A stretch of DNA of 64,000 bases from an uncultured Candidatus Saccharibacteria bacterium (GCA_964490365.1 CAZBAG010000001.1:56459-120458), one strand, 5' to 3'. Shown: positions 40,202 to 47,459, counted from the first letter of the stretch. The notes: generated by a model from the letters alone, not told the origin. Made by a program: numbers and translations.

Positions 40202-40657
40202 ATGAAAATATTTATCGGAACAGATCATGCCGGGTTTACCATGAAAGAAGAGCTCAAAAAATATGTGCGTGATTTGGGTCATGAAGTTATAGACCAAGGC
40301 GCCCACGAGTTTAATCCGACTGACGACTATCCTGACTTTGTTTCGCTTGTTGCTGAAGGGGTGGTGGCTACCCCTCCAGAAAGTGCGGATGAAGTAAGGG
40401 GTATTGTGCTGGGCGGCACGGGCACAGGAGAAGCTATAGAAGCAAATAGACTTTTGGGTATACGAACTGCTGTGTACTATGGTGGTCCACAAGAAATAGT
40501 AACCCTTGCACGTGAACACAATGATGCAAATATACTTTCTCTAGGAGCTAGGTTTATGAGCTTGAAAGAAGCAGAAGAGGCGATAAAAATTTTTCTAGAA
40601 ACCCCATTTTCCGGAGACGAGAGACATATTAGAAGGATTGTTAAGCTAGATAATTAA
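40202..40657 (+). CDS. rpiB: ribose-5-phosphate isomerase B (RpiB/LacAB family)
   Basis: MKIFIGTDHAGF ... GIVLGGTGTGEAIEANRLLGIRTAV. Confidence 0.85.
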   Translation: MKIFIGTDHAGFTMKEELKKYVRDLGHEVIDQGAHEFNPTDDYPDFVSLVAEGVVATPPESADEVRGIVLGGTGTGEAIEANRLLGIRTAVYYGGPQEIVTLAREHNDANILSLGARFMSLKEAEEAIKIFLETPFSGDERHIRRIVKLDN

Positions 40658-40678: not shown

Positions 40679-41053
40679 ATGGGATTTGAAAATTTTGAAG
40701 GGACAGAACAAATAAAAGATTTTAATAAAGAGGCCCGTGAGCAAATAGTAGAAGCTTATTTAGAGTTTCAAAGTTTTTATAATGAAATATTAGAAAGATC
40801 TACTAGAAACCCCGGCCTATCAATTGAACCCCATAATGCTTGGCAAATTATAGATCGTCTGGCTTCTGAGTTATGGCAAGTTCAAAGAACCCTCGATACA
40901 TATCCAGAAGAGATTCCAAATCAAGAAGTACAAAATCTGTTAGCTGTTACTCAACGTGTAATGAATAAGGCGCAAGGTTTTTATCATGGAGAATATAATC
41001 TTCTTGATAAAAATGGTAATTGGCTTGAAAATCTAGAACACCTTAAAAAATAA
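40679..41053 (+). CDS. hypothetical protein (124 aa)
   Basis: ORF between rpiB and fba. Confidence 0.45.
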   Translation: MGFENFEGTEQIKDFNKEAREQIVEAYLEFQSFYNEILERSTRNPGLSIEPHNAWQIIDRLASELWQVQRTLDTYPEEIPNQEVQNLLAVTQRVMNKAQGFYHGEYNLLDKNGNWLENLEHLKK

Positions 41054-41069
41054 AAAATTATTTATTCAA

Positions 41070-42077
41070 ATGGATCATATTGAAATTGAAAAACTCAAAA
41101 ATACCGTAGCGCTCATGATGCAAGACGGAAGGGGTATTCTTGCAGCGGATGAAAGTAATACAACCTGCAATAAAAGATTTCAAACGTTAGGTATTCCAGA
41201 AACTGAAGAAGAGCGACGACGATGGCGTGAACTTCTTTTGTGTGCGCCGCTTATGGAAAAATTTGTGAGCGGGGTTATTTTATTTGACGAGACAATTCGT
41301 CAATCTGATTCACAAGGAAAAAAATTTACAGAAGTTTTAAAAGAAAAAGGCGTTCTTGTTGGGATTAAAGTAGATGAGGGTCTCCAAGAATTTATTGATC
41401 ATCCCGGAGAGCATCTCACTCATGGATTAAACGGTCTTCCTGCAAGACTTCAAGAGTACAAATCTCTTGGTGCAACGTTTGCAAAATGGCGAGCTGCGTA
41501 TGCTATTTCGGAAAGAACTCCAAGTGATGACGCTATACGTGAAAACTCAGAGATTCTTGCGAGATATGCTGTGGCGTGCCAAGAGCACGATATTGTCCCT
41601 ATGGTTGAGCCAGAGGTGTTGCTTGATGGAGGTCATTCTCTTGAAACATCAAAAGATGTTACAAAAAAAGTTTTGAAAGGCTTGTTCGAAGCGCTTGAAA
41701 AGTACCATGTTCACTTGGAAGGGTTAATTCTAAAAACAAGTATGGTCTTGTCGGGAAAAGAAAATCAAAACAGAGCTGATGCACAAGCTGTGGGAGAAGC
41801 AACCGTAGAAGTTCTTAAAGAATGTGTACCAGCGGAGGTTGCCGGGGTGGTGTTCCTTTCTGGGGGGCAAACTCCTGACGAGGCAACGGCAAACTTTAAC
41901 GCTATTGCAAAGCACGAACCGTTACCTTGGCCACTTGCTTTTTCTTTCTCACGAGCAATTCAAAATGATGCTTTGGCAACATGGGCTGGAAAAATATCAA
42001 ACGTTGACCTTGCTCGCGCTGCGTATCTAGAACGACTAAAGTCAAACTCAAAAGCTGATCAAGGATTACTAAATTAA
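41070..42077 (+). CDS. fba: class I fructose-bisphosphate aldolase
   Basis: GILAADES N-terminal motif and a Schiff-base Lys region (LEGLILKTSMV). Confidence 0.9.
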   Translation: MDHIEIEKLKNTVALMMQDGRGILAADESNTTCNKRFQTLGIPETEEERRRWRELLLCAPLMEKFVSGVILFDETIRQSDSQGKKFTEVLKEKGVLVGIKVDEGLQEFIDHPGEHLTHGLNGLPARLQEYKSLGATFAKWRAAYAISERTPSDDAIRENSEILARYAVACQEHDIVPMVEPEVLLDGGHSLETSKDVTKKVLKGLFEALEKYHVHLEGLILKTSMVLSGKENQNRADAQAVGEATVEVLKECVPAEVAGVVFLSGGQTPDEATANFNAIAKHEPLPWPLAFSFSRAIQNDALATWAGKISNVDLARAAYLERLKSNSKADQGLLN

Positions 42078-42078
42078 A

Positions 42079-42112
42079 AAATAGGCGTTTAATAATTAAA
42101 AACGCCTATTTG
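42079..42112. terminator. bidirectional AT-rich terminator (ATAGGCGTTT-loop-AAACGCCTAT)
   Basis: Perfect 10-bp stem between convergent genes. Confidence 0.65.
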
Positions 42113-42123
42113 ATTCTTTGATA

Positions 42124-42342
42124 TCACAACTTCTTCAAGATAGTCCCACAGTCAGAACATTCTTCATTTATCCAGTAGTCATCGGCATAGAAGCCACGTC
42201 TGACAGTTTTGGTATTGGTATGCGGACATCTTTGCCTAAGAGCTTTAAGTTCAATCACTAATTCTTCGAATTTCGCATCTAATATCTTTTTACGCCCCCG
42301 AACTTCTTCTACGTTGAGAGGTGACTCTTTATTTTCTGGCAT
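42124..42342 (-). CDS. small Cys-containing protein, possible zinc-ribbon (72 aa)
   Basis: RCPHT ... CSDCG spacing. Confidence 0.4.
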   Translation of the reverse strand: MPENKESPLNVEEVRGRKKILDAKFEELVIELKALRQRCPHTNTKTVRRGFYADDYWINEECSDCGTILKKL

Positions 42343-42446
42343 GTTACTTTGCTTTGGTATACCTTATATCACATAGTCATCAAAAAGCCTAAATCCATGT
42401 CTCGGGTTAAATAAAATAGATTTTATAAATATGTTAAAATGAAATA

Positions 42447-43127
42447 ATGACAGAAATAATACCAGCGATAATGCCAAAAGGTTTAGGGGATTTAGAGGCA
42501 AAAGCTTCTTTGGTATATAAACACGTAAAAACCATTCAACTTGACCTCATGGACGGAGAGTATGTTGAAGCAAAAACATGGCCATTCTTTCTTAAAAATG
42601 CAGAGGATATGGATGGAATTTTGAACGGCAAAGTATTGCCGTTTGCAGAAAGTGTCGACTATGAGCTCGACCTCATGGTGTTGTCTCCTGAACGAGATTT
42701 AAAAAAATATATTGCCATGAGACCGCGCAGGATTATTTTTCATGCACGTTCAATCGAGAATCATGCGTCATTCCTGGAGACACTCAAAAGTTTCGACAAA
42801 GGTGATGAAATAGAATTTGGTGTCGCGATCAGTGCGACAGAAAATTTAGAGTATGCAGATTTTCTTGTAAAAAATTTCAACTTTGTTCAGATTATGGGTA
42901 TTGAAGAAATTGGCAAGCAAGGTGAACTATTTGATGATCGTGTTTTTACACAGATTAAAAGTCTTAAAGAGAAATATCCGGGTGTTATAATCAGTATAGA
43001 CGGAGGGGTGAATCTAGAAAATGCGAAACGACTAAAAGAAGCCGGTGTCGATAGACTTGTATCTGGTTCAACTATTTTTCAAAGTGAAGATAAACAAGAA
43101 ACAATAGCCCAATTAAAAAATGGATAA
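42447..43127 (+). CDS. ribulose-phosphate 3-epimerase-like TIM-barrel protein (Rpe family, non-canonical metal ligands)
   Basis: Alignable to Rpe: IIPAIMPKGLGDL ... LDLMDGEYV ... LDLMV ... IIFHARS ... IDGGVN ... SGSTIF. The two His ligands appear replaced by Gln and Asp. Confidence 0.6.
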   Translation: MTEIIPAIMPKGLGDLEAKASLVYKHVKTIQLDLMDGEYVEAKTWPFFLKNAEDMDGILNGKVLPFAESVDYELDLMVLSPERDLKKYIAMRPRRIIFHARSIENHASFLETLKSFDKGDEIEFGVAISATENLEYADFLVKNFNFVQIMGIEEIGKQGELFDDRVFTQIKSLKEKYPGVIISIDGGVNLENAKRLKEAGVDRLVSGSTIFQSEDKQETIAQLKNG

Positions 43128-43980
43128 TCTATCAGCGCAAAAAGAAAAAGAACTCATGCTCAAGGCGAATGATATACGCCAAAGTATTATTGATATGCTT
43201 GAAGACGCTGGTTCGGGGCACACCGCAGGTCCGCTCGGCATGACAGATATTTTTACTGCTTTCTATTTTCATATTTTAAACCACGATCCAAAACATCCAG
43301 AATGGAGCGAGCGAGATAGGCTTATTCTCTCTAATGGTCACATTGTTCCTGTGCGTTACGCCACTATGGCTCACGCCGGCTATTTGCCTTTGTCAGAGCT
43401 CAAGACACTTCGAAAGTTTGGCTCAAGGCTCCAAGGTCACCCAGAACGTGAAAAACTCCCTGGAATGGAAAACACCTCAGGTCCACTTGGTTCAGGGCTT
43501 TCACAAGCCGCTGGAATAGCTCTATCTGCGCGTATGGACGGCAAAAAGTTCAAAACCTATTGCTTTATGTCTGATGGCGAAATGGACGCTGGAAATATTT
43601 GGGAAGCGGCCATGTTTGCAAGTGCTCACAAACTCTCAAATCTTATTGGTCTGATCGACCGTAACAATATTCAAATTAATGGCATGACAGAACAAGTTAT
43701 GCCGCTTGAACCACTCGCTGATAAATGGCGAGCGTTTGGCTGGAACGTTATTGATATAGACGGACACAACATTGAGGCAATTGTTGACGCAGTCTCAGAA
43801 GCTCATGCTGTTTTTGAGAAACCAACGGTAATCATCGCGCACACTATTCCAGGTAAAGGAATCAAAGAGATTGAGTTTGACTACGAATGGCATGGAAAAC
43901 CGCCAACAAAAGAAGAAGAACAAAAGTTTTTAAAAGAGTTACGAACGCTGCGAGGACAAATTGAAGCAGGGCATAGTTAG
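43120..43980 (+). CDS. transketolase, N-terminal (TPP-binding) subunit of a split enzyme
   Basis: GSGHTAGPLGMTD ... GDGEMDAGNIWEAAMFA ... IGLIDRNNIQI. Confidence 0.9.
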   Translation: MDNLSAQKEKELMLKANDIRQSIIDMLEDAGSGHTAGPLGMTDIFTAFYFHILNHDPKHPEWSERDRLILSNGHIVPVRYATMAHAGYLPLSELKTLRKFGSRLQGHPEREKLPGMENTSGPLGSGLSQAAGIALSARMDGKKFKTYCFMSDGEMDAGNIWEAAMFASAHKLSNLIGLIDRNNIQINGMTEQVMPLEPLADKWRAFGWNVIDIDGHNIEAIVDAVSEAHAVFEKPTVIIAHTIPGKGIKEIEFDYEWHGKPPTKEEEQKFLKELRTLRGQIEAGHS

Positions 43981-44056
43981 TAAAAATTATTAAAAGTTTT
44001 TATTTTTATAGTATGGAAACTAGTAAAAAAAGAATACTTGGTGGTATAGATTACTT

Positions 44057-44467
44057 ATGGTACTTCATGTAATACTAATATTCGTAGGAGTATCTATCTC
44101 ATTTAGTATGGGCTTACTAGATAATATGCCAGAAATAGTTACTTACAGTAAGGTAGACTATTCTAAATCTTATATAGTATGTAATGAAAATAATAAAATT
44201 TACTATTTTGATAAAACAGGCCTTGATATTAGTGAAAATTATTTAGACGTTAGTAGTTTCATAAAAGCCAAGAACATTTGTGGGAAGGGTTCTGATAGTT
44301 TTGAGACCTACATTTCTAGATACGATGAAAAAATAGGCTCGTGGTTAGATGCAGTTTTATATACTTTGCTAGGTTTACTTATAACATTCTCAATAAGTTA
44401 TTTACTTAAGTCGACCTTTAATTTTATTGTATTTAATGAAAAATTTAAATTACCATTTAAAAAGTAA
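44057..44467 (+). CDS. hypothetical membrane protein (136 aa) inserted between the transketolase halves; very AT-rich
   Basis: TM helices at both ends. Asn/Tyr/Lys-rich codon usage. Confidence 0.45.
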   Translation: MVLHVILIFVGVSISFSMGLLDNMPEIVTYSKVDYSKSYIVCNENNKIYYFDKTGLDISENYLDVSSFIKAKNICGKGSDSFETYISRYDEKIGSWLDAVLYTLLGLLITFSISYLLKSTFNFIVFNEKFKLPFKK

Positions 44468-44468
44468 A

Positions 44469-45470
44469 ATGTTAAACGAAAATTCAAAACTTAATAATCA
44501 TGTTTTTGATACTGAGAAACTTGAGCAGGTACCAACTCGAGATGGCTTTGGTCATGGTTTGGTTGAGGCGGGAGAACTTGATCCAAAGGTCGTCGCCCTG
44601 TGCGCAGACTTAGCCGAGTCTACTCGAGCGCATTGGTTTAAAGAAAAATTCCCAGAACGGTATGTTGAACTCGGCGTGGCAGAACAAAATCTTGCAGCTG
44701 TTGCGTCTGGCATGGCTAACTATGGGAAAATTCCATTCATTATGTCGTACGCAGCATTTTCACCAGGAAGAAACAATGAACAGATCAGAACAACTATTTC
44801 TCTAAATAACGTGCCTGTGAAGGTTGTGGGTTGTCACGCGGGTATTTCCGTTGGTCCAGATGGTGCAACACACCAAGCACTTGAAGATATTGCTCTCATG
44901 CGTACACAACCAAATATGACCGTCATTGTTCCTGCAGATTCTGAAGAAGCGAGAAAAGCTACTCTTGCTGTGGCAAAAAATGGTAAGCCAACATATCTTC
45001 GTTTGGGTCGGGACAAGTCGCCAGTCTTCACGACAAAGGAAACACCGTTTCAAATTGGAAAAGCTCAAATTTTGTTTAAATCAAAAAATCCAATCGTCGT
45101 GATTGTTGCTTGTGGAACACTCGTTCACAATGCATTGCTTGCCGCACATGATCTTGAGAAAGAAGGACTAGGAACCGCTGTTATAAATCTTGCAACGATA
45201 AAACCTTTTGATACAAGTATTTTGCCATTTATAAAAGAAGTAGGTGCGTTAGTTACCGCAGAAGAACATCAAATACGAGGTGGTATGGGAAGTGCCGTGG
45301 CAGAAGAGATGGCGAAATATTTTCCAGTACCACAAGAGTTCATTGGTGTTGATGACAGGTTTGGGCAGTCTGGTAATACGAAAGAGCTCATGGCTGAATA
45401 TGGTATGGATGTTGCGCACATTAAGCTTGCCGTGAAAAAAGTTTTCAAAAGAAAAAATGGAGGTATGTAG
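44469..45470 (+). CDS. transketolase, C-terminal (pyrimidine-binding) subunit
   Basis: Start set at MLNENSK. Conserved LGVAEQNL ... MSYAAF ... VGPDGATHQALEDIALMRTQPNMTV motifs. Confidence 0.9.
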   Translation: MLNENSKLNNHVFDTEKLEQVPTRDGFGHGLVEAGELDPKVVALCADLAESTRAHWFKEKFPERYVELGVAEQNLAAVASGMANYGKIPFIMSYAAFSPGRNNEQIRTTISLNNVPVKVVGCHAGISVGPDGATHQALEDIALMRTQPNMTVIVPADSEEARKATLAVAKNGKPTYLRLGRDKSPVFTTKETPFQIGKAQILFKSKNPIVVIVACGTLVHNALLAAHDLEKEGLGTAVINLATIKPFDTSILPFIKEVGALVTAEEHQIRGGMGSAVAEEMAKYFPVPQEFIGVDDRFGQSGNTKELMAEYGMDVAHIKLAVKKVFKRKNGGM

Positions 45471-45475
45471 AAACT

Positions 45476-45503
45476 AAAACCCACAAATGTGGGTTTTAGT
45501 TTT
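45476..45503. terminator. bidirectional terminator (AAACCCAC-aaat-GTGGGTTT)
   Basis: 8-bp stem between convergent genes. Confidence 0.7.
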
Positions 45504-46101
45504 GTTCAAAATTATACCTTTCATTTCCTACAGTTTTTTCTTCGTCCGGAATCTCTTTCTTTATTAGATTTGTTAGTAAGTTTAGAGTCTCTTCTATTTC
45601 TCCAAGTTCTTTATATAGAGGAACAATTTCTATTTCACCTTTTTCAAGATTTTTTCTTAATCTTTCAACTCTATCTTCAGCCCCCCTCATTATTTCTACT
45701 GTAATCATGTCTCTATCTTTCGAAACAAGATCTTTTGCATTTAGGTTTTTTACAGATTTCTCTGCGCCAGACTTACTATATCTTAATTCATTTAAAATTA
45801 TTTGTCTTTCTTTTATCTCTTCTTTTAGTTTTCCGTATTCTATTCTAAGGCTATTTATTCTTTCAGTTAGTTCATTGTCTCTTTTTTCTTCTTCCCAAGA
45901 CCCGTCGTTTGCAACTGCGCCATCTCTATCGATAATTTCTCTTGTTTTAATTTCTTGATTTAAACCTCCAACAAAATCGTTAGAAGAAATATCTCCATGT
46001 ATCTCTAAATCTTTCTGTTTGTTTAAAATTTCTTCTGTACTTCTATCGTTCGGCTCAAAACCTTTTTCGTTTTTGTTAAAAATCTTTTTAAATAGTTCCA
46101 T
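45496..46101 (-). CDS. hypothetical acidic coiled-coil protein (201 aa)
   Basis: Last gene of a three-gene minus-strand operon; 7-nt spacer from the gene upstream. Confidence 0.5.
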   Translation of the reverse strand: MELFKKIFNKNEKGFEPNDRSTEEILNKQKDLEIHGDISSNDFVGGLNQEIKTREIIDRDGAVANDGSWEEEKRDNELTERINSLRIEYGKLKEEIKERQIILNELRYSKSGAEKSVKNLNAKDLVSKDRDMITVEIMRGAEDRVERLRKNLEKGEIEIVPLYKELGEIEETLNLLTNLIKKEIPDEEKTVGNERYNFEQN

Positions 46102-46108
46102 AGATTTT

Positions 46109-46459
46109 TTAGTTTAAATTAGGGTCTATTAATACCGAATCAGGGTGTATCATTTTTAGCATATCTCTTAATTCTTTTACTCTGGCCTCTATTTTTTCAT
46201 CCTGAGGCAGGGATTCGTAGTACTCTAAAGCCTCTTGTATGTCTTGAATTCTTTGTGCAATAGTTTCTGATCCGTCTTTTTCGTTACTGCTTAAAATTTT
46301 ATCTTTAGAGTTATTTTCAACACTAGCATTAAAGTTTAATTGATCTGTGTAATCTTCTAAAGAAAGTTCTTTTTCTGTCAATGAAAAATCTACATGTTCA
46401 TCAATTTTTTCATCCTTTTTAAATTTATTAATCCTTTCTGGCTTTTCAAAAAATCCCAT
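46109..46459 (-). CDS. hypothetical acidic protein (116 aa), N-terminally similar to the downstream 201-aa protein
   Basis: MGFFEKPER here versus KGFEPNDR in the other. Abuts the PfkB gene stop. Confidence 0.5.
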   Translation of the reverse strand: MGFFEKPERINKFKKDEKIDEHVDFSLTEKELSLEDYTDQLNFNASVENNSKDKILSSNEKDGSETIAQRIQDIQEALEYYESLPQDEKIEARVKELRDMLKMIHPDSVLIDPNLN

Positions 46460-46460
46460 A

Positions 46461-47459
46461 TTAATTTATTTTCTTAGGTTTGTAATAGGTTGGTGCTTTT
46501 GCCAGCCATTCCTCCAGCTTTCTTCTCCTTAAAAGACCTTTTTGTGCTCCCACATATTGTACCACGGACATTGAGTTGACTGGCCCCCACATGAGAGCTT
46601 GTTCTACAGGCATTCCCAAAGCCAAAGCCGATGTAAATGTGCTTGAAAATGAATCTCCTGCACCAGTTCGTTCAACTGGTGGTGCTGGGTCGGGATACAT
46701 CGGAATATAGAGCATGTCTTGTCCGTCATACGTGTATGCACCATCTGGGCCGTCGGTAATAACAACTATTTTAGGGCCAAGATTTTTAATGCCCGATAAA
46801 AGATTTTTAATCTCTTTGTCTTTTGAATTGAGTATTTTTTGAGCCTCTTCTTTGTTACAGAAAAAAACGTGAGAGTTTTCATATAAACTTTTTAGTTTCT
46901 CGGCACCTAAACTTATTTGAAATGTTCCCGGTTGGAAAGCAAGTTTTACGTTGTTTTCTTGTACATACTTGGCAATGTCTAATTGATAGTCTAAAGAATT
47001 TTCTGCCAGAGAAGAGAGATATATCCATTCTGGAGCTTCTGAACCGTTTAGAACATCGAGCGTGTAGTTGAATTGTGCGTGTTTAATCAAAATAGTTCGT
47101 TCTGCCTCAAAACTTAATACATAGTGATAGTTAGTCTTAAAACCATCTTGTGTTTGTACAAGATCTGTTTTGATACCGTTTTCCTTAAGCGCGGTGATGC
47201 ATTCTTTTCCATTGTCATCGTTACCAACATGCGTGATGATTGCAGATTCGAGCCCAAGTCTCGACGCAGAGACTGCGGCATTTGGACTGTTGCCAACGGC
47301 TTTTACTACTTCGACATCTTTGTAGGGAATTTTGTCTCCAAATCGCATTGAAATGGTGCAATTGTCGTCATTAATATCACAAGACACCCTTGCATCTTGT
47401 AGCTGGATAAATGCATCAGTAACAATGTCACCAATAGCTAAAAATTTTACACGTTTCAT
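46461..47459 (-). CDS. PfkB-family carbohydrate/nucleoside kinase (ribokinase-like)
   Basis: N-terminal GD motif (LAIGDIVTD) and C-terminal anion-hole motif RTGAGDSF. Start set at MKRVKF. Confidence 0.8.
   Translation of the reverse strand: MKRVKFLAIGDIVTDAFIQLQDARVSCDINDDNCTISMRFGDKIPYKDVEVVKAVGNSPNAAVSASRLGLESAIITHVGNDDNGKECITALKENGIKTDLVQTQDGFKTNYHYVLSFEAERTILIKHAQFNYTLDVLNGSEAPEWIYLSSLAENSLDYQLDIAKYVQENNVKLAFQPGTFQISLGAEKLKSLYENSHVFFCNKEEAQKILNSKDKEIKNLLSGIKNLGPKIVVITDGPDGAYTYDGQDMLYIPMYPDPAPPVERTGAGDSFSSTFTSALALGMPVEQALMWGPVNSMSVVQYVGAQKGLLRRRKLEEWLAKAPTYYKPKKIN

Follow-up and report, generated by a model that had tools for sequence, protein, structure and literature searches.

Hotspots of horizontal gene transfer (HGT) between core genes often lack mobile-element genes, with homologous recombination taking place in their flanks (Oliveira, Touchon, Cury and Rocha, 2017; PMC5635113). 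Positions 43981–44468 of a stretch of DNA from an uncultured Candidatus Saccharibacteria bacterium (64,000 nt in all, hereafter the 64-kb window) are comparable to such a hotspot. They lie in a pentose-phosphate/glycolysis operon on the plus strand, rpiB-fba-rpe-tktN-(136-codon open reading frame, ORF)-tktC, where they fill the interval from the stop codon of tktN to the start codon of tktC, the genes for the two halves of a split transketolase. The stretch is probably the strain-specific content of a hypervariable slot, a hotspot of gene turnover whose occupant in the window, a gene for a small membrane protein, is frameshifted. Like the described hotspots, the interval is bounded by core genes, appears to turn over quickly among close relatives, contains no recognisable mobile-element genes and is flanked by possible signs of recombination (PMC5635113). 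Unlike them, it lies inside an operon and between two subunits of one enzyme, and its cargo is limited to between one and three small genes, which lack promoters, share the orientation of the operon and are packed within a few bases of one another. The host is also different, being a reduced member of the Patescibacteria, and the comparison concerns a genus-like clade of metagenomic contigs rather than the pangenome of a species. Finally, the variability extends to neighbouring junctions of the operon.

The slot also recalls the cassette array of an integron, in that promoterless, co-oriented single-gene units occur at one site behind an upstream promoter, in combinations that vary among strains. 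It differs in having no integrase in the flanks, no room for attC sites (most units are separated by 0–5 nt) and no boundary repeats. As in other split transketolases, both halves are present and intact, in the usual order and with the usual Pfam domains, but their usual overlap or near-contact is broken by 488 nt of unrelated coding DNA.

The slot between tktN and tktC

The original prediction held that the two halves of a split transketolase are normally adjacent, and a scan of one genome per species agrees. Both halves were present in 78 of the 80 loci encoding tktN relatives, and in these the tktC start lay a median of -2.5 nt from the tktN stop (≤30 nt in 56 of the 78), against 488 nt in the window. 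Gaps of more than 200 nt were found in five loci of other phyla (L038, L047, L050, L051 and L080) and contained no convincing genes. In distant Patescibacteria (L006–L011; tktN 59–67% identical), the raw tblastn match-to-match distance is 8–98 nt. The closest species-level relative, L005 (tktN 89% identical), has a 559-nt gap at the same junction, filled by genes for a DUF6176 protein and for a membrane protein of the CBU_0592 family, both unrelated to the ORF of the window. A search of the literature for split transketolase in Patescibacteria returned nothing relevant.

Near relatives were gathered by the identity of their tktC protein to that of the window (76–95%), and their contigs, some of them short and metagenomic, were then examined. 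The junction of L085 (tktC 95%) contains one unnamed 100-aa ORF, while those of L086 (90%) and L088 (86%) are empty, with 4 nt and 1 nt (TAAaATG) between the halves. ORFs of 48, 83 and 123 aa are found in L087 (87%), a DUF6176 gene and the 100-aa ORF in L089 (86%), a CBU_0592 gene alone in L090 and L091 (84%), the same gene with a 71-nt spacer in L092–L094 (84%), and a 67-aa ORF with a gene for an HD-domain hydrolase in L095 (76%). In all, eight junction states, the empty one included, occur among 12 genomes whose tktC is at least 76% identical. No trace of a homologue of the window ORF was detected by tblastn (E up to 1e-3) in the eleven near relatives, among them the 95%-identical sister, and no related genome carries one at the junction. 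The 100-aa ORF shared by L085 and L089 was considered as possibly MazG-like, but searches of Pfam, NCBIfam and the PDB did not bear this out, and it was left unnamed.

In a neighbour-joining tree of tktC, these relatives form one clade, with the genomes that have adjacent halves as outgroups, and the slot appears to belong to a single genus- or family-level clade of Patescibacteria. The tree pairs the window with L085, which has a different cargo, and places the empty L086 next. Nucleotide homology between the window and L085 (82–85%) runs as far as the tktN stop codon, is lost across the slot and returns at the tktC ATG. All slot cargo is co-oriented with the operon, with spacers of 0–32 nt, and the right-hand junction TAA-A-ATG is common to most occupied sites and to one empty site (L088). 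No boundary repeat common to different cargos was seen in the compared junctions. The insert of the window is itself flanked by a 7-nt direct repeat (AGTAAAA), and if one copy is removed together with the 477 nt in between, the remaining junction reads TAG-TAAA-ATG, similar to those of the empty L086 and L088. The repeat could be a trace of microhomology-mediated insertion, or a chance occurrence in AT-rich DNA. The prediction of a secondary insertion into a conserved operon is thus well matched by a lineage-specific ORF, by two relatives with an empty junction and others with unrelated genes, and by homology that breaks at the gene borders.

Both genes that border the slot are intact. TktN matches Transketolase_N (PF00456, E 8.3e-61) over residues 16–270 of 286 and is 88–90% identical to its near relatives over its full length, and TktC contains the Transket_pyr (PF02779, E 1.1e-41) and Transketolase_C (PF02780, E 1.6e-25) domains. 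Since the TktC start MLNEN... is kept in all near relatives, its true start codon is the ATG at 44469. The public gene calls of Logan begin tktC at the ATG at 44436 (344 aa), which gives a 32-nt overlap with the cargo ORF. The stop codon of the ORF had been described as overlapping the tktC start region; instead, the TAA (44465–44467) is separated from the ATG by a single A.

The stretch had also been noted as much more AT-rich than the flanking halves, and it is the lowest-GC 488-bp stretch anywhere in the window (25.6% GC, against 44.1% in tktN, 42.4% in tktC and 39.0% in the window as a whole). As a sign of foreign origin, however, the AT-richness of the ORF is weak. Its GC content at codon positions 1, 2 and 3 is 0.32, 0.27 and 0.22, compared with 0.57, 0.38 and 0.37 in tktN and 0.58, 0.39 and 0.30 in tktC. 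The deficit lies mainly at positions 1 and 2 and therefore reflects amino acid composition of a membrane type (Ile, Lys, Phe and Tyr), while the third-position value (GC3) matches that of native lineage-specific genes, being 0.19 and 0.23 in the two clade-variable minus-strand genes that follow tktC (201 aa and 116 aa). The slot cargos of relatives are AT-rich as well (23–34% GC, versus 42–48% in tktC). The case for secondary acquisition rests on the phyletic pattern and not on composition.

The occupant protein and its relatives

The 136-aa ORF that had been predicted between the PF00456 and PF02779/PF02780 proteins is present, from an ATG at 44057 to the TAA noted above. It is not a chance reading frame: the stop-free run around it spans 146 codons, whereas 20,000 mononucleotide shuffles of the 488-nt stretch never reached 136 (maximum 130). 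Two predicted transmembrane (TM) segments are supported by Kyte-Doolittle hydropathy, with peaks at residues 2–20 and 99–117 (19-residue windows), and by AlphaFold helices at residues 2–22 and 96–126. The single-sequence AlphaFold model is poor (predicted local distance difference test, pLDDT, 66.6), whereas a model from seven sequences reaches 78.9, with a folded domain of ~75 aa between the TM helices at pLDDT ~90. Both termini are predicted by the positive-inside rule to be cytoplasmic, with the domain that carries a pair of cysteines facing outward, and any role of the protein at the cell surface is putative. The protein had been called rich in Asn, Tyr and Lys. Its most abundant residues are Ser, Leu, Ile and Lys, and Tyr is raised (7.4%), but Asn is only moderate (5.9%).

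A word-indexed protein search with the ORF returned only the protein itself, in five identical contigs. The protein is nevertheless no orphan, since HMMER run against 1.84 billion representatives yielded six credible relatives, 156–199 aa long (P0122, P0123, P0124, P0125, P0127 and P0130; E 9e-9 to 5e-4), with phmmer E-values of 9.4e-9 for P0122 (query residues 5–135) and 6.4e-8 for P0123; three further weak matches were to repeats in large unrelated proteins. In the reverse direction, tblastn of the six family members against the window gave E-values of 1.8e-19 to 2.4e-13. The window copy is 31–39% identical to the family over its full length and still encodes every invariant residue, although its outer domain is the shortest. 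Family members mostly begin with Met-Glu, followed by a basic stretch, the motif WW[YFQH]R (invariant WWxR) and the first TM segment (TM1). Beyond TM1, the order is SY[IVL]xC, YxF, A[KQT]xxC, G[STG][WAY], the second TM segment (TM2) and Y[LI]xxS...F...F..P. The window copy shares KK..WWxR, SYIxC...YxF...AKxxC, GSW and YLxxSxFxxxxFxxxFxxP with the family, and C42, C75, Y115, S119, F130 and P133 are invariant in the family alignment (A2). The likeness to the family therefore comprises full-length similarity, two TM segments, the Cys pair and the C-terminal motif. The window copy differs in being frameshifted, in having a WWxR motif that is untranslated from the ATG at 44057, and in lying between transketolase halves rather than among hypothetical genes.

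A search with the family profile against 5.8 billion clusters added no members. Pfam, NCBIfam, PADLOC and PDB sequences contain no counterpart of the protein or of the family, and PHROGs yielded nothing above noise, its only match (E 1e-3) being to the TM stretch. A tblastn search of phage and plasmid records gave no match, and neither did a scan of viral contigs with P0123. These proteins form a real, though very rare and unnamed, family of predicted two-pass membrane proteins with a small alpha/beta outer domain.

In other genomes, the homologues are not found between transketolase halves but in unrelated contexts. The gene for P0130 belongs to a ~10-kb block made up of hypothetical genes, which borders on the genes for a large serine recombinase and a helix-turn-helix (HTH_17) protein and is enclosed by housekeeping genes; this block is probably an integrated element or island of unassigned type. 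At that locus (L101, 4332–16134), the block measures ~10–12 kb, the serine recombinase 552 aa, and the flanks encode an ABC transporter, purA and guaB. P0122 is found among small unannotated ORFs. Next to it (L096, 3164–3672), two adjacent small ORFs look like a split retropepsin-like aspartic protease (DTGATGS), a candidate assignment, and a 120-aa ORF may, by resemblance, encode a phage small-terminase or helix-turn-helix protein.

Frame break at the 5′-end of the occupant gene

The true start of the gene is an ATG at 44013, upstream of the 136-codon ORF, which as first described is 5′-truncated, and a frameshift lies in a homopolymer of seven A residues (A7) shortly after this ATG. This ATG now opens an ORF of only 19 codons, METSKKRILGGIDYLWYFM. 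The same ATGGAAA (Met-Glu) opens the window copy and the homologous genes in L096 and L099, and five of the six homologous proteins start with Met-Glu (P0124 begins with Met-Asn). With eight A residues, or a -1 slip, the ATG at 44013 is joined to the long ORF, yielding a 151-aa protein (METSKKKNTWWYRLLMVLHV...) that aligns with the family from end to end. The codons for the WWxR motif lie in the frame of the long ORF but 5′ of its ATG. They are closed off by a TAA (44024–44026), and no in-frame ATG, GTG or TTG is found from this stop to 44057. Residues W10, W11 and R13 are invariant in alignment A1, and homologues have ~15–20 residues ahead of TM1, WWxR among them. With all six homologues, tblastn alignments start at 44027 or 44030 and not at 44057. 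The window and L096 are identical over 18 nt of DNA (ATACTTGGTGGTATAGAT), as read off the sequences.

The frame break falls in the fifth to seventh codon. Four contigs, each assembled independently from its own sequencing run, have the same A7 with zero mismatches, and it is therefore not a one-off assembly error. The homologous genes in L096 and L099 are single uninterrupted ORFs, and the simplest reading would be a recent one-base deletion in the homopolymer. As translation of the long ORF needs either the internal ATG at 44057, without WWxR, or rare slippage on A7, the gene may be newly disabled or at a reduced or altered output. Programmed -1 frameshifting is unlikely, because the 0-frame heptamer T AAA AAA is not an in-phase X XXY YYZ, the RNA downstream of A7 has no significant structure (fold z -1.2) and the homologues that were read are uninterrupted. 

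No plus-strand promoter-like site and no terminator-like site was found within 43981–44468. The only strong terminator hairpin found is the one after tktC (-25.1 kcal/mol, z -5.97; none of 200 shuffles as stable). Since no promoter or terminator of its own was detected, the ORF is most likely transcribed with the rpiB-fba-rpe-tkt operon, which would be the most economical reading. The claim of co-transcription with tktC is accordingly plausible, given the same orientation, the 1-nt spacer and the lack of a terminator before 45470–45503. Rfam contains no riboswitch or small RNA for 42000–46500. A weak match to ohsC_RNA on the minus strand (45471–45531; 27.4 bits against a gathering threshold of 50, E 0.4) is probably the terminator hairpin. 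GGAG, GAGG or AGGA occurs within 22 nt of the start in only two of 54 ORFs of at least 150 aa in the window, the listed upstream sequences look AT-rich, as at 44013, and the organism does not seem to rely on Shine-Dalgarno initiation. Translational coupling of tktC to the cargo, for want of a Shine-Dalgarno motif, was considered as a special feature and rejected, since so few ORFs have the motif.

Operon context and origin of the slot content

The features of the operon are listed in Table 1. The neighbouring junctions rpiB-fba, fba-rpe, rpe-tktN and tktC-pfkB vary as well, as far as the compared contigs reach, these being short and centred on the locus. At the rpiB-fba and fba-rpe junctions, the genes of relatives are adjacent or separated by other ORFs. 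Between rpe and tktN, a 112-aa gene is found in L087, a 191-aa gene in L088 (which also has a 379-aa gene between fba and rpe), and genes of 150 aa and 143 aa in L089. The interval between tktC and pfkB contains the two minus-strand genes mentioned above (45496–46459; GC ~30%), which vary among L085–L095. The relatives of the 201-aa protein are only 39–80% identical, and the 116-aa protein is present only in L090 and L091, other relatives holding different small ORFs. The end of tktC is a further variable position, overlapped by a DUF1653 gene in L085 (1449–1709) and L095 (4489–4752) but not in the window.

Table 1. Coordinates of genes and smaller features in and around the slot, counted from the first base of the window.
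Feature	Position	Strand	Basis or remark
rpiB	40202–40657	+	
124-aa ORF between rpiB and fba	40679–41053	+	No counterpart in loci of near relatives
fba, class-I fructose-bisphosphate aldolase	41070–42077	+	
72-aa ORF between fba and rpe, weak zinc-ribbon match	42124–42342	-	No counterpart in loci of near relatives
rpe, ribulose-phosphate 3-epimerase	42447–43127	+	
tktN, N-terminal thiamine-diphosphate-binding half of split transketolase, intact; left border of slot	43120–43980	+	PF00456
AGTAAAA direct repeat (7 nt), left copy, overlapping tktN stop TAG (43978–43980)	43979–43985	+	Read from sequence
AT-rich 32-nt spacer 5′ of ancestral start codon	43981–44012	+	
Ancestral start ATG (44013) with present 19-codon ORF, TAA at 44070–44072	44013–44072	+	
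A7 homopolymer, site of frame break	44025–44031	+	
Codons K K N T W W Y R L L (WWxR motif), in frame of 136-aa ORF and 5′ of its ATG	44027–44056	+	
136-aa ORF: TM1, ~75-aa predicted extracytoplasmic domain with two conserved Cys, TM2, basic C-terminal tail	44057–44467	+	
AGTAAAA direct repeat, right copy: cargo stop TAA, 1-nt spacer and A of tktC ATG	44463–44469	+	Read from sequence
tktC, C-terminal half (pyrimidine-binding and C-terminal domains), intact; right border of slot	44469–45470	+	PF02779, PF02780
15-bp hairpin and U-run, likely bidirectional intrinsic terminator closing the operon after tktC	45470–45503	.	RNA fold

Identities along the operon are mosaic. L005 and L088 are 72% identical in rpe, 98% in tktN and 89% in tktC, which suggests recombination with breakpoints near gene junctions, or gene-scale recombination or conversion of tktN. 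Likewise, L095 is 86–90% identical in tktN to every member of the clade but no more than 64–78% identical in fba, rpe and tktC. The gene was probably acquired secondarily on the branch leading to the window genome. Homologous recombination in the conserved tkt arms probably exchanges the slot content, with occasional illegitimate insertion followed by trimming of the spacers, and the window copy appears to have lost one base from the poly-A run near its 5′-end. A dedicated mobile element is not indicated. The slot contains no mobility gene, inverted repeat or att-like site, no transposase, integrase or terminal inverted repeats are found in it or beside it, and a repeat search returned only short, AT-rich, chance-like repeats.

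Several points weigh against this scenario. The identities of DUF6176 (~88%, L005 versus L089) and the 100-aa ORF (~85%, L085 versus L089), both estimated by eye, put cargo divergence at about that of the transketolase genes, which fits ancestral occupancy with losses equally well as repeated gains. The tree is quick and unbootstrapped and some of the contigs are short, so that gain on the window branch, as opposed to differential loss, is a parsimony argument only. Uneven constraint or chimeric assembly could explain part of the mosaic pattern. A mobile context for the homologues is no more than suggested, their neighbours having no PHROG or Pfam match, and co-transcription with the operon and translation of the ORF are predicted from sequence. 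The available sequences of this exact gene are identical copies, in which purifying selection on the window copy is not measurable, and the frameshift may mean that the gene is already dead. Continuous residence of the gene since the ancestor of the clade, with loss or replacement elsewhere, nevertheless seems quite improbable. Occupancy of the slot in most clade members and the apparently long residence of DUF6176, the 100-aa ORF and CBU_0592, all diverging about as tkt does, would agree with it. Against this stand the lack of any trace in the eleven relatives, the unrelated contexts of the homologues in other genomes, and an untrimmed 32-nt upstream spacer, compared with 1–5 nt for long-resident cargo.

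A decaying remnant, in which an acquired or inherited gene is now a pseudogene and the lesion is too recent for stop codons to have closed the ORF, is possible but somewhat doubtful. It would account for WWxR codons that are readable yet cut off from any start codon, for the intact single-ORF homologues in L096 and L099, and for two relatives that lack any cargo, so that nothing in the slot can be essential. On the other hand, 146 stop-free codons in DNA of 27% GC exceed anything obtained by shuffling, the downstream invariant residues are all kept, so any decay must be very recent, the ATG at 44057 directly precedes TM1 and could yield a membrane-inserted product, and all four samples are fixed for A7. 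Regulated decoding is unlikely, that is, phase variation between A7 and A8, transcriptional slippage or -1 ribosomal slippage that would produce the 151-aa surface protein in a fraction of cells or transcripts. Surface-exposed proteins are the gene class typically under homopolymer phase variation, the outer domain of the protein is predicted to be surface-exposed, and the required shift is exactly -1 (one extra A) inside A7. It is also documented in general that transcriptional or ribosomal slippage partly rescues indels in poly-A tracts and other A/T runs (reviewed in PMC5009743), and the window copy resembles such cases, as its genome is AT-rich and reduced and the gene is intact apart from the one-base break at its 5′-end. 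However, A7 is short for efficient slippage (the window contains 38 runs of at least seven A), all four sampled contigs have A7 without an A8 variant, no stimulatory structure follows, the heptamer is out of phase, and the break is not conserved in the homologues whose DNA was read. That the ORF entered the operon as a selfish element or a toxin gene, a possibility raised by the original prediction, has become very improbable, even though it is small, hydrophobic, strain-specific, AT-rich and flanked by the 7-nt repeat, and one homologue lies near a serine recombinase. It occupies the slot as a single gene with no antitoxin-like partner, and it has no transposase, integrase or terminal inverted repeats in or beside the slot. 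Among PADLOC, Pfam, NCBIfam, PHROGs, PDB sequences and phage and plasmid records, its only match is the PHROGs hit to a TM stretch, and in relatives the slot is filled by what seem to be ordinary membrane proteins or enzymes of small size. Short hydrophobic type I toxins and holins are unlike a protein with a ~75-aa extracytoplasmic domain and a conserved Cys pair. Class II holins are small proteins in which a short loop connects the two TM helices, and they are encoded beside an endolysin in a lysis cassette, whereas the loop of the window protein is a predicted folded domain and its neighbours are transketolase halves.

As a probable gene-turnover hotspot between core genes, the locus is an instance of genome dynamics that are already known, and it reveals no new mechanism or function. 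The interesting unit is the slot and not the gene. A more far-reaching conjecture, which we regard as unlikely, is that the site between tktN and tktC, perhaps along with all other junctions in the operon, actively captures promoterless single-gene cassettes in one orientation without integrase or attC, for example by transformation and recombination guided by the TAA-A-ATG junction or by AGTAAAA microhomology, and that A7 may act as an on/off switch. If so, streamlined Patescibacteria would express strain-specific surface or housekeeping accessories from core-metabolic promoters.

At the locus itself, the gene model is corrected to a start at 44013 with a frameshift at A7, and the rare, unnamed membrane-protein family defined here is suitable for family databases. 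The locus is compact and well bounded, and its tkt genes can serve as anchors for polymerase chain reaction (PCR) or read recruitment in following gain, loss and recombination in uncultivated bacteria. Slot content appears to turn over faster than the 5% protein divergence of the flanking genes. Accessory genes would thus turn over inside a core sugar-metabolism operon of streamlined Patescibacteria, even between the subunits of one enzyme.

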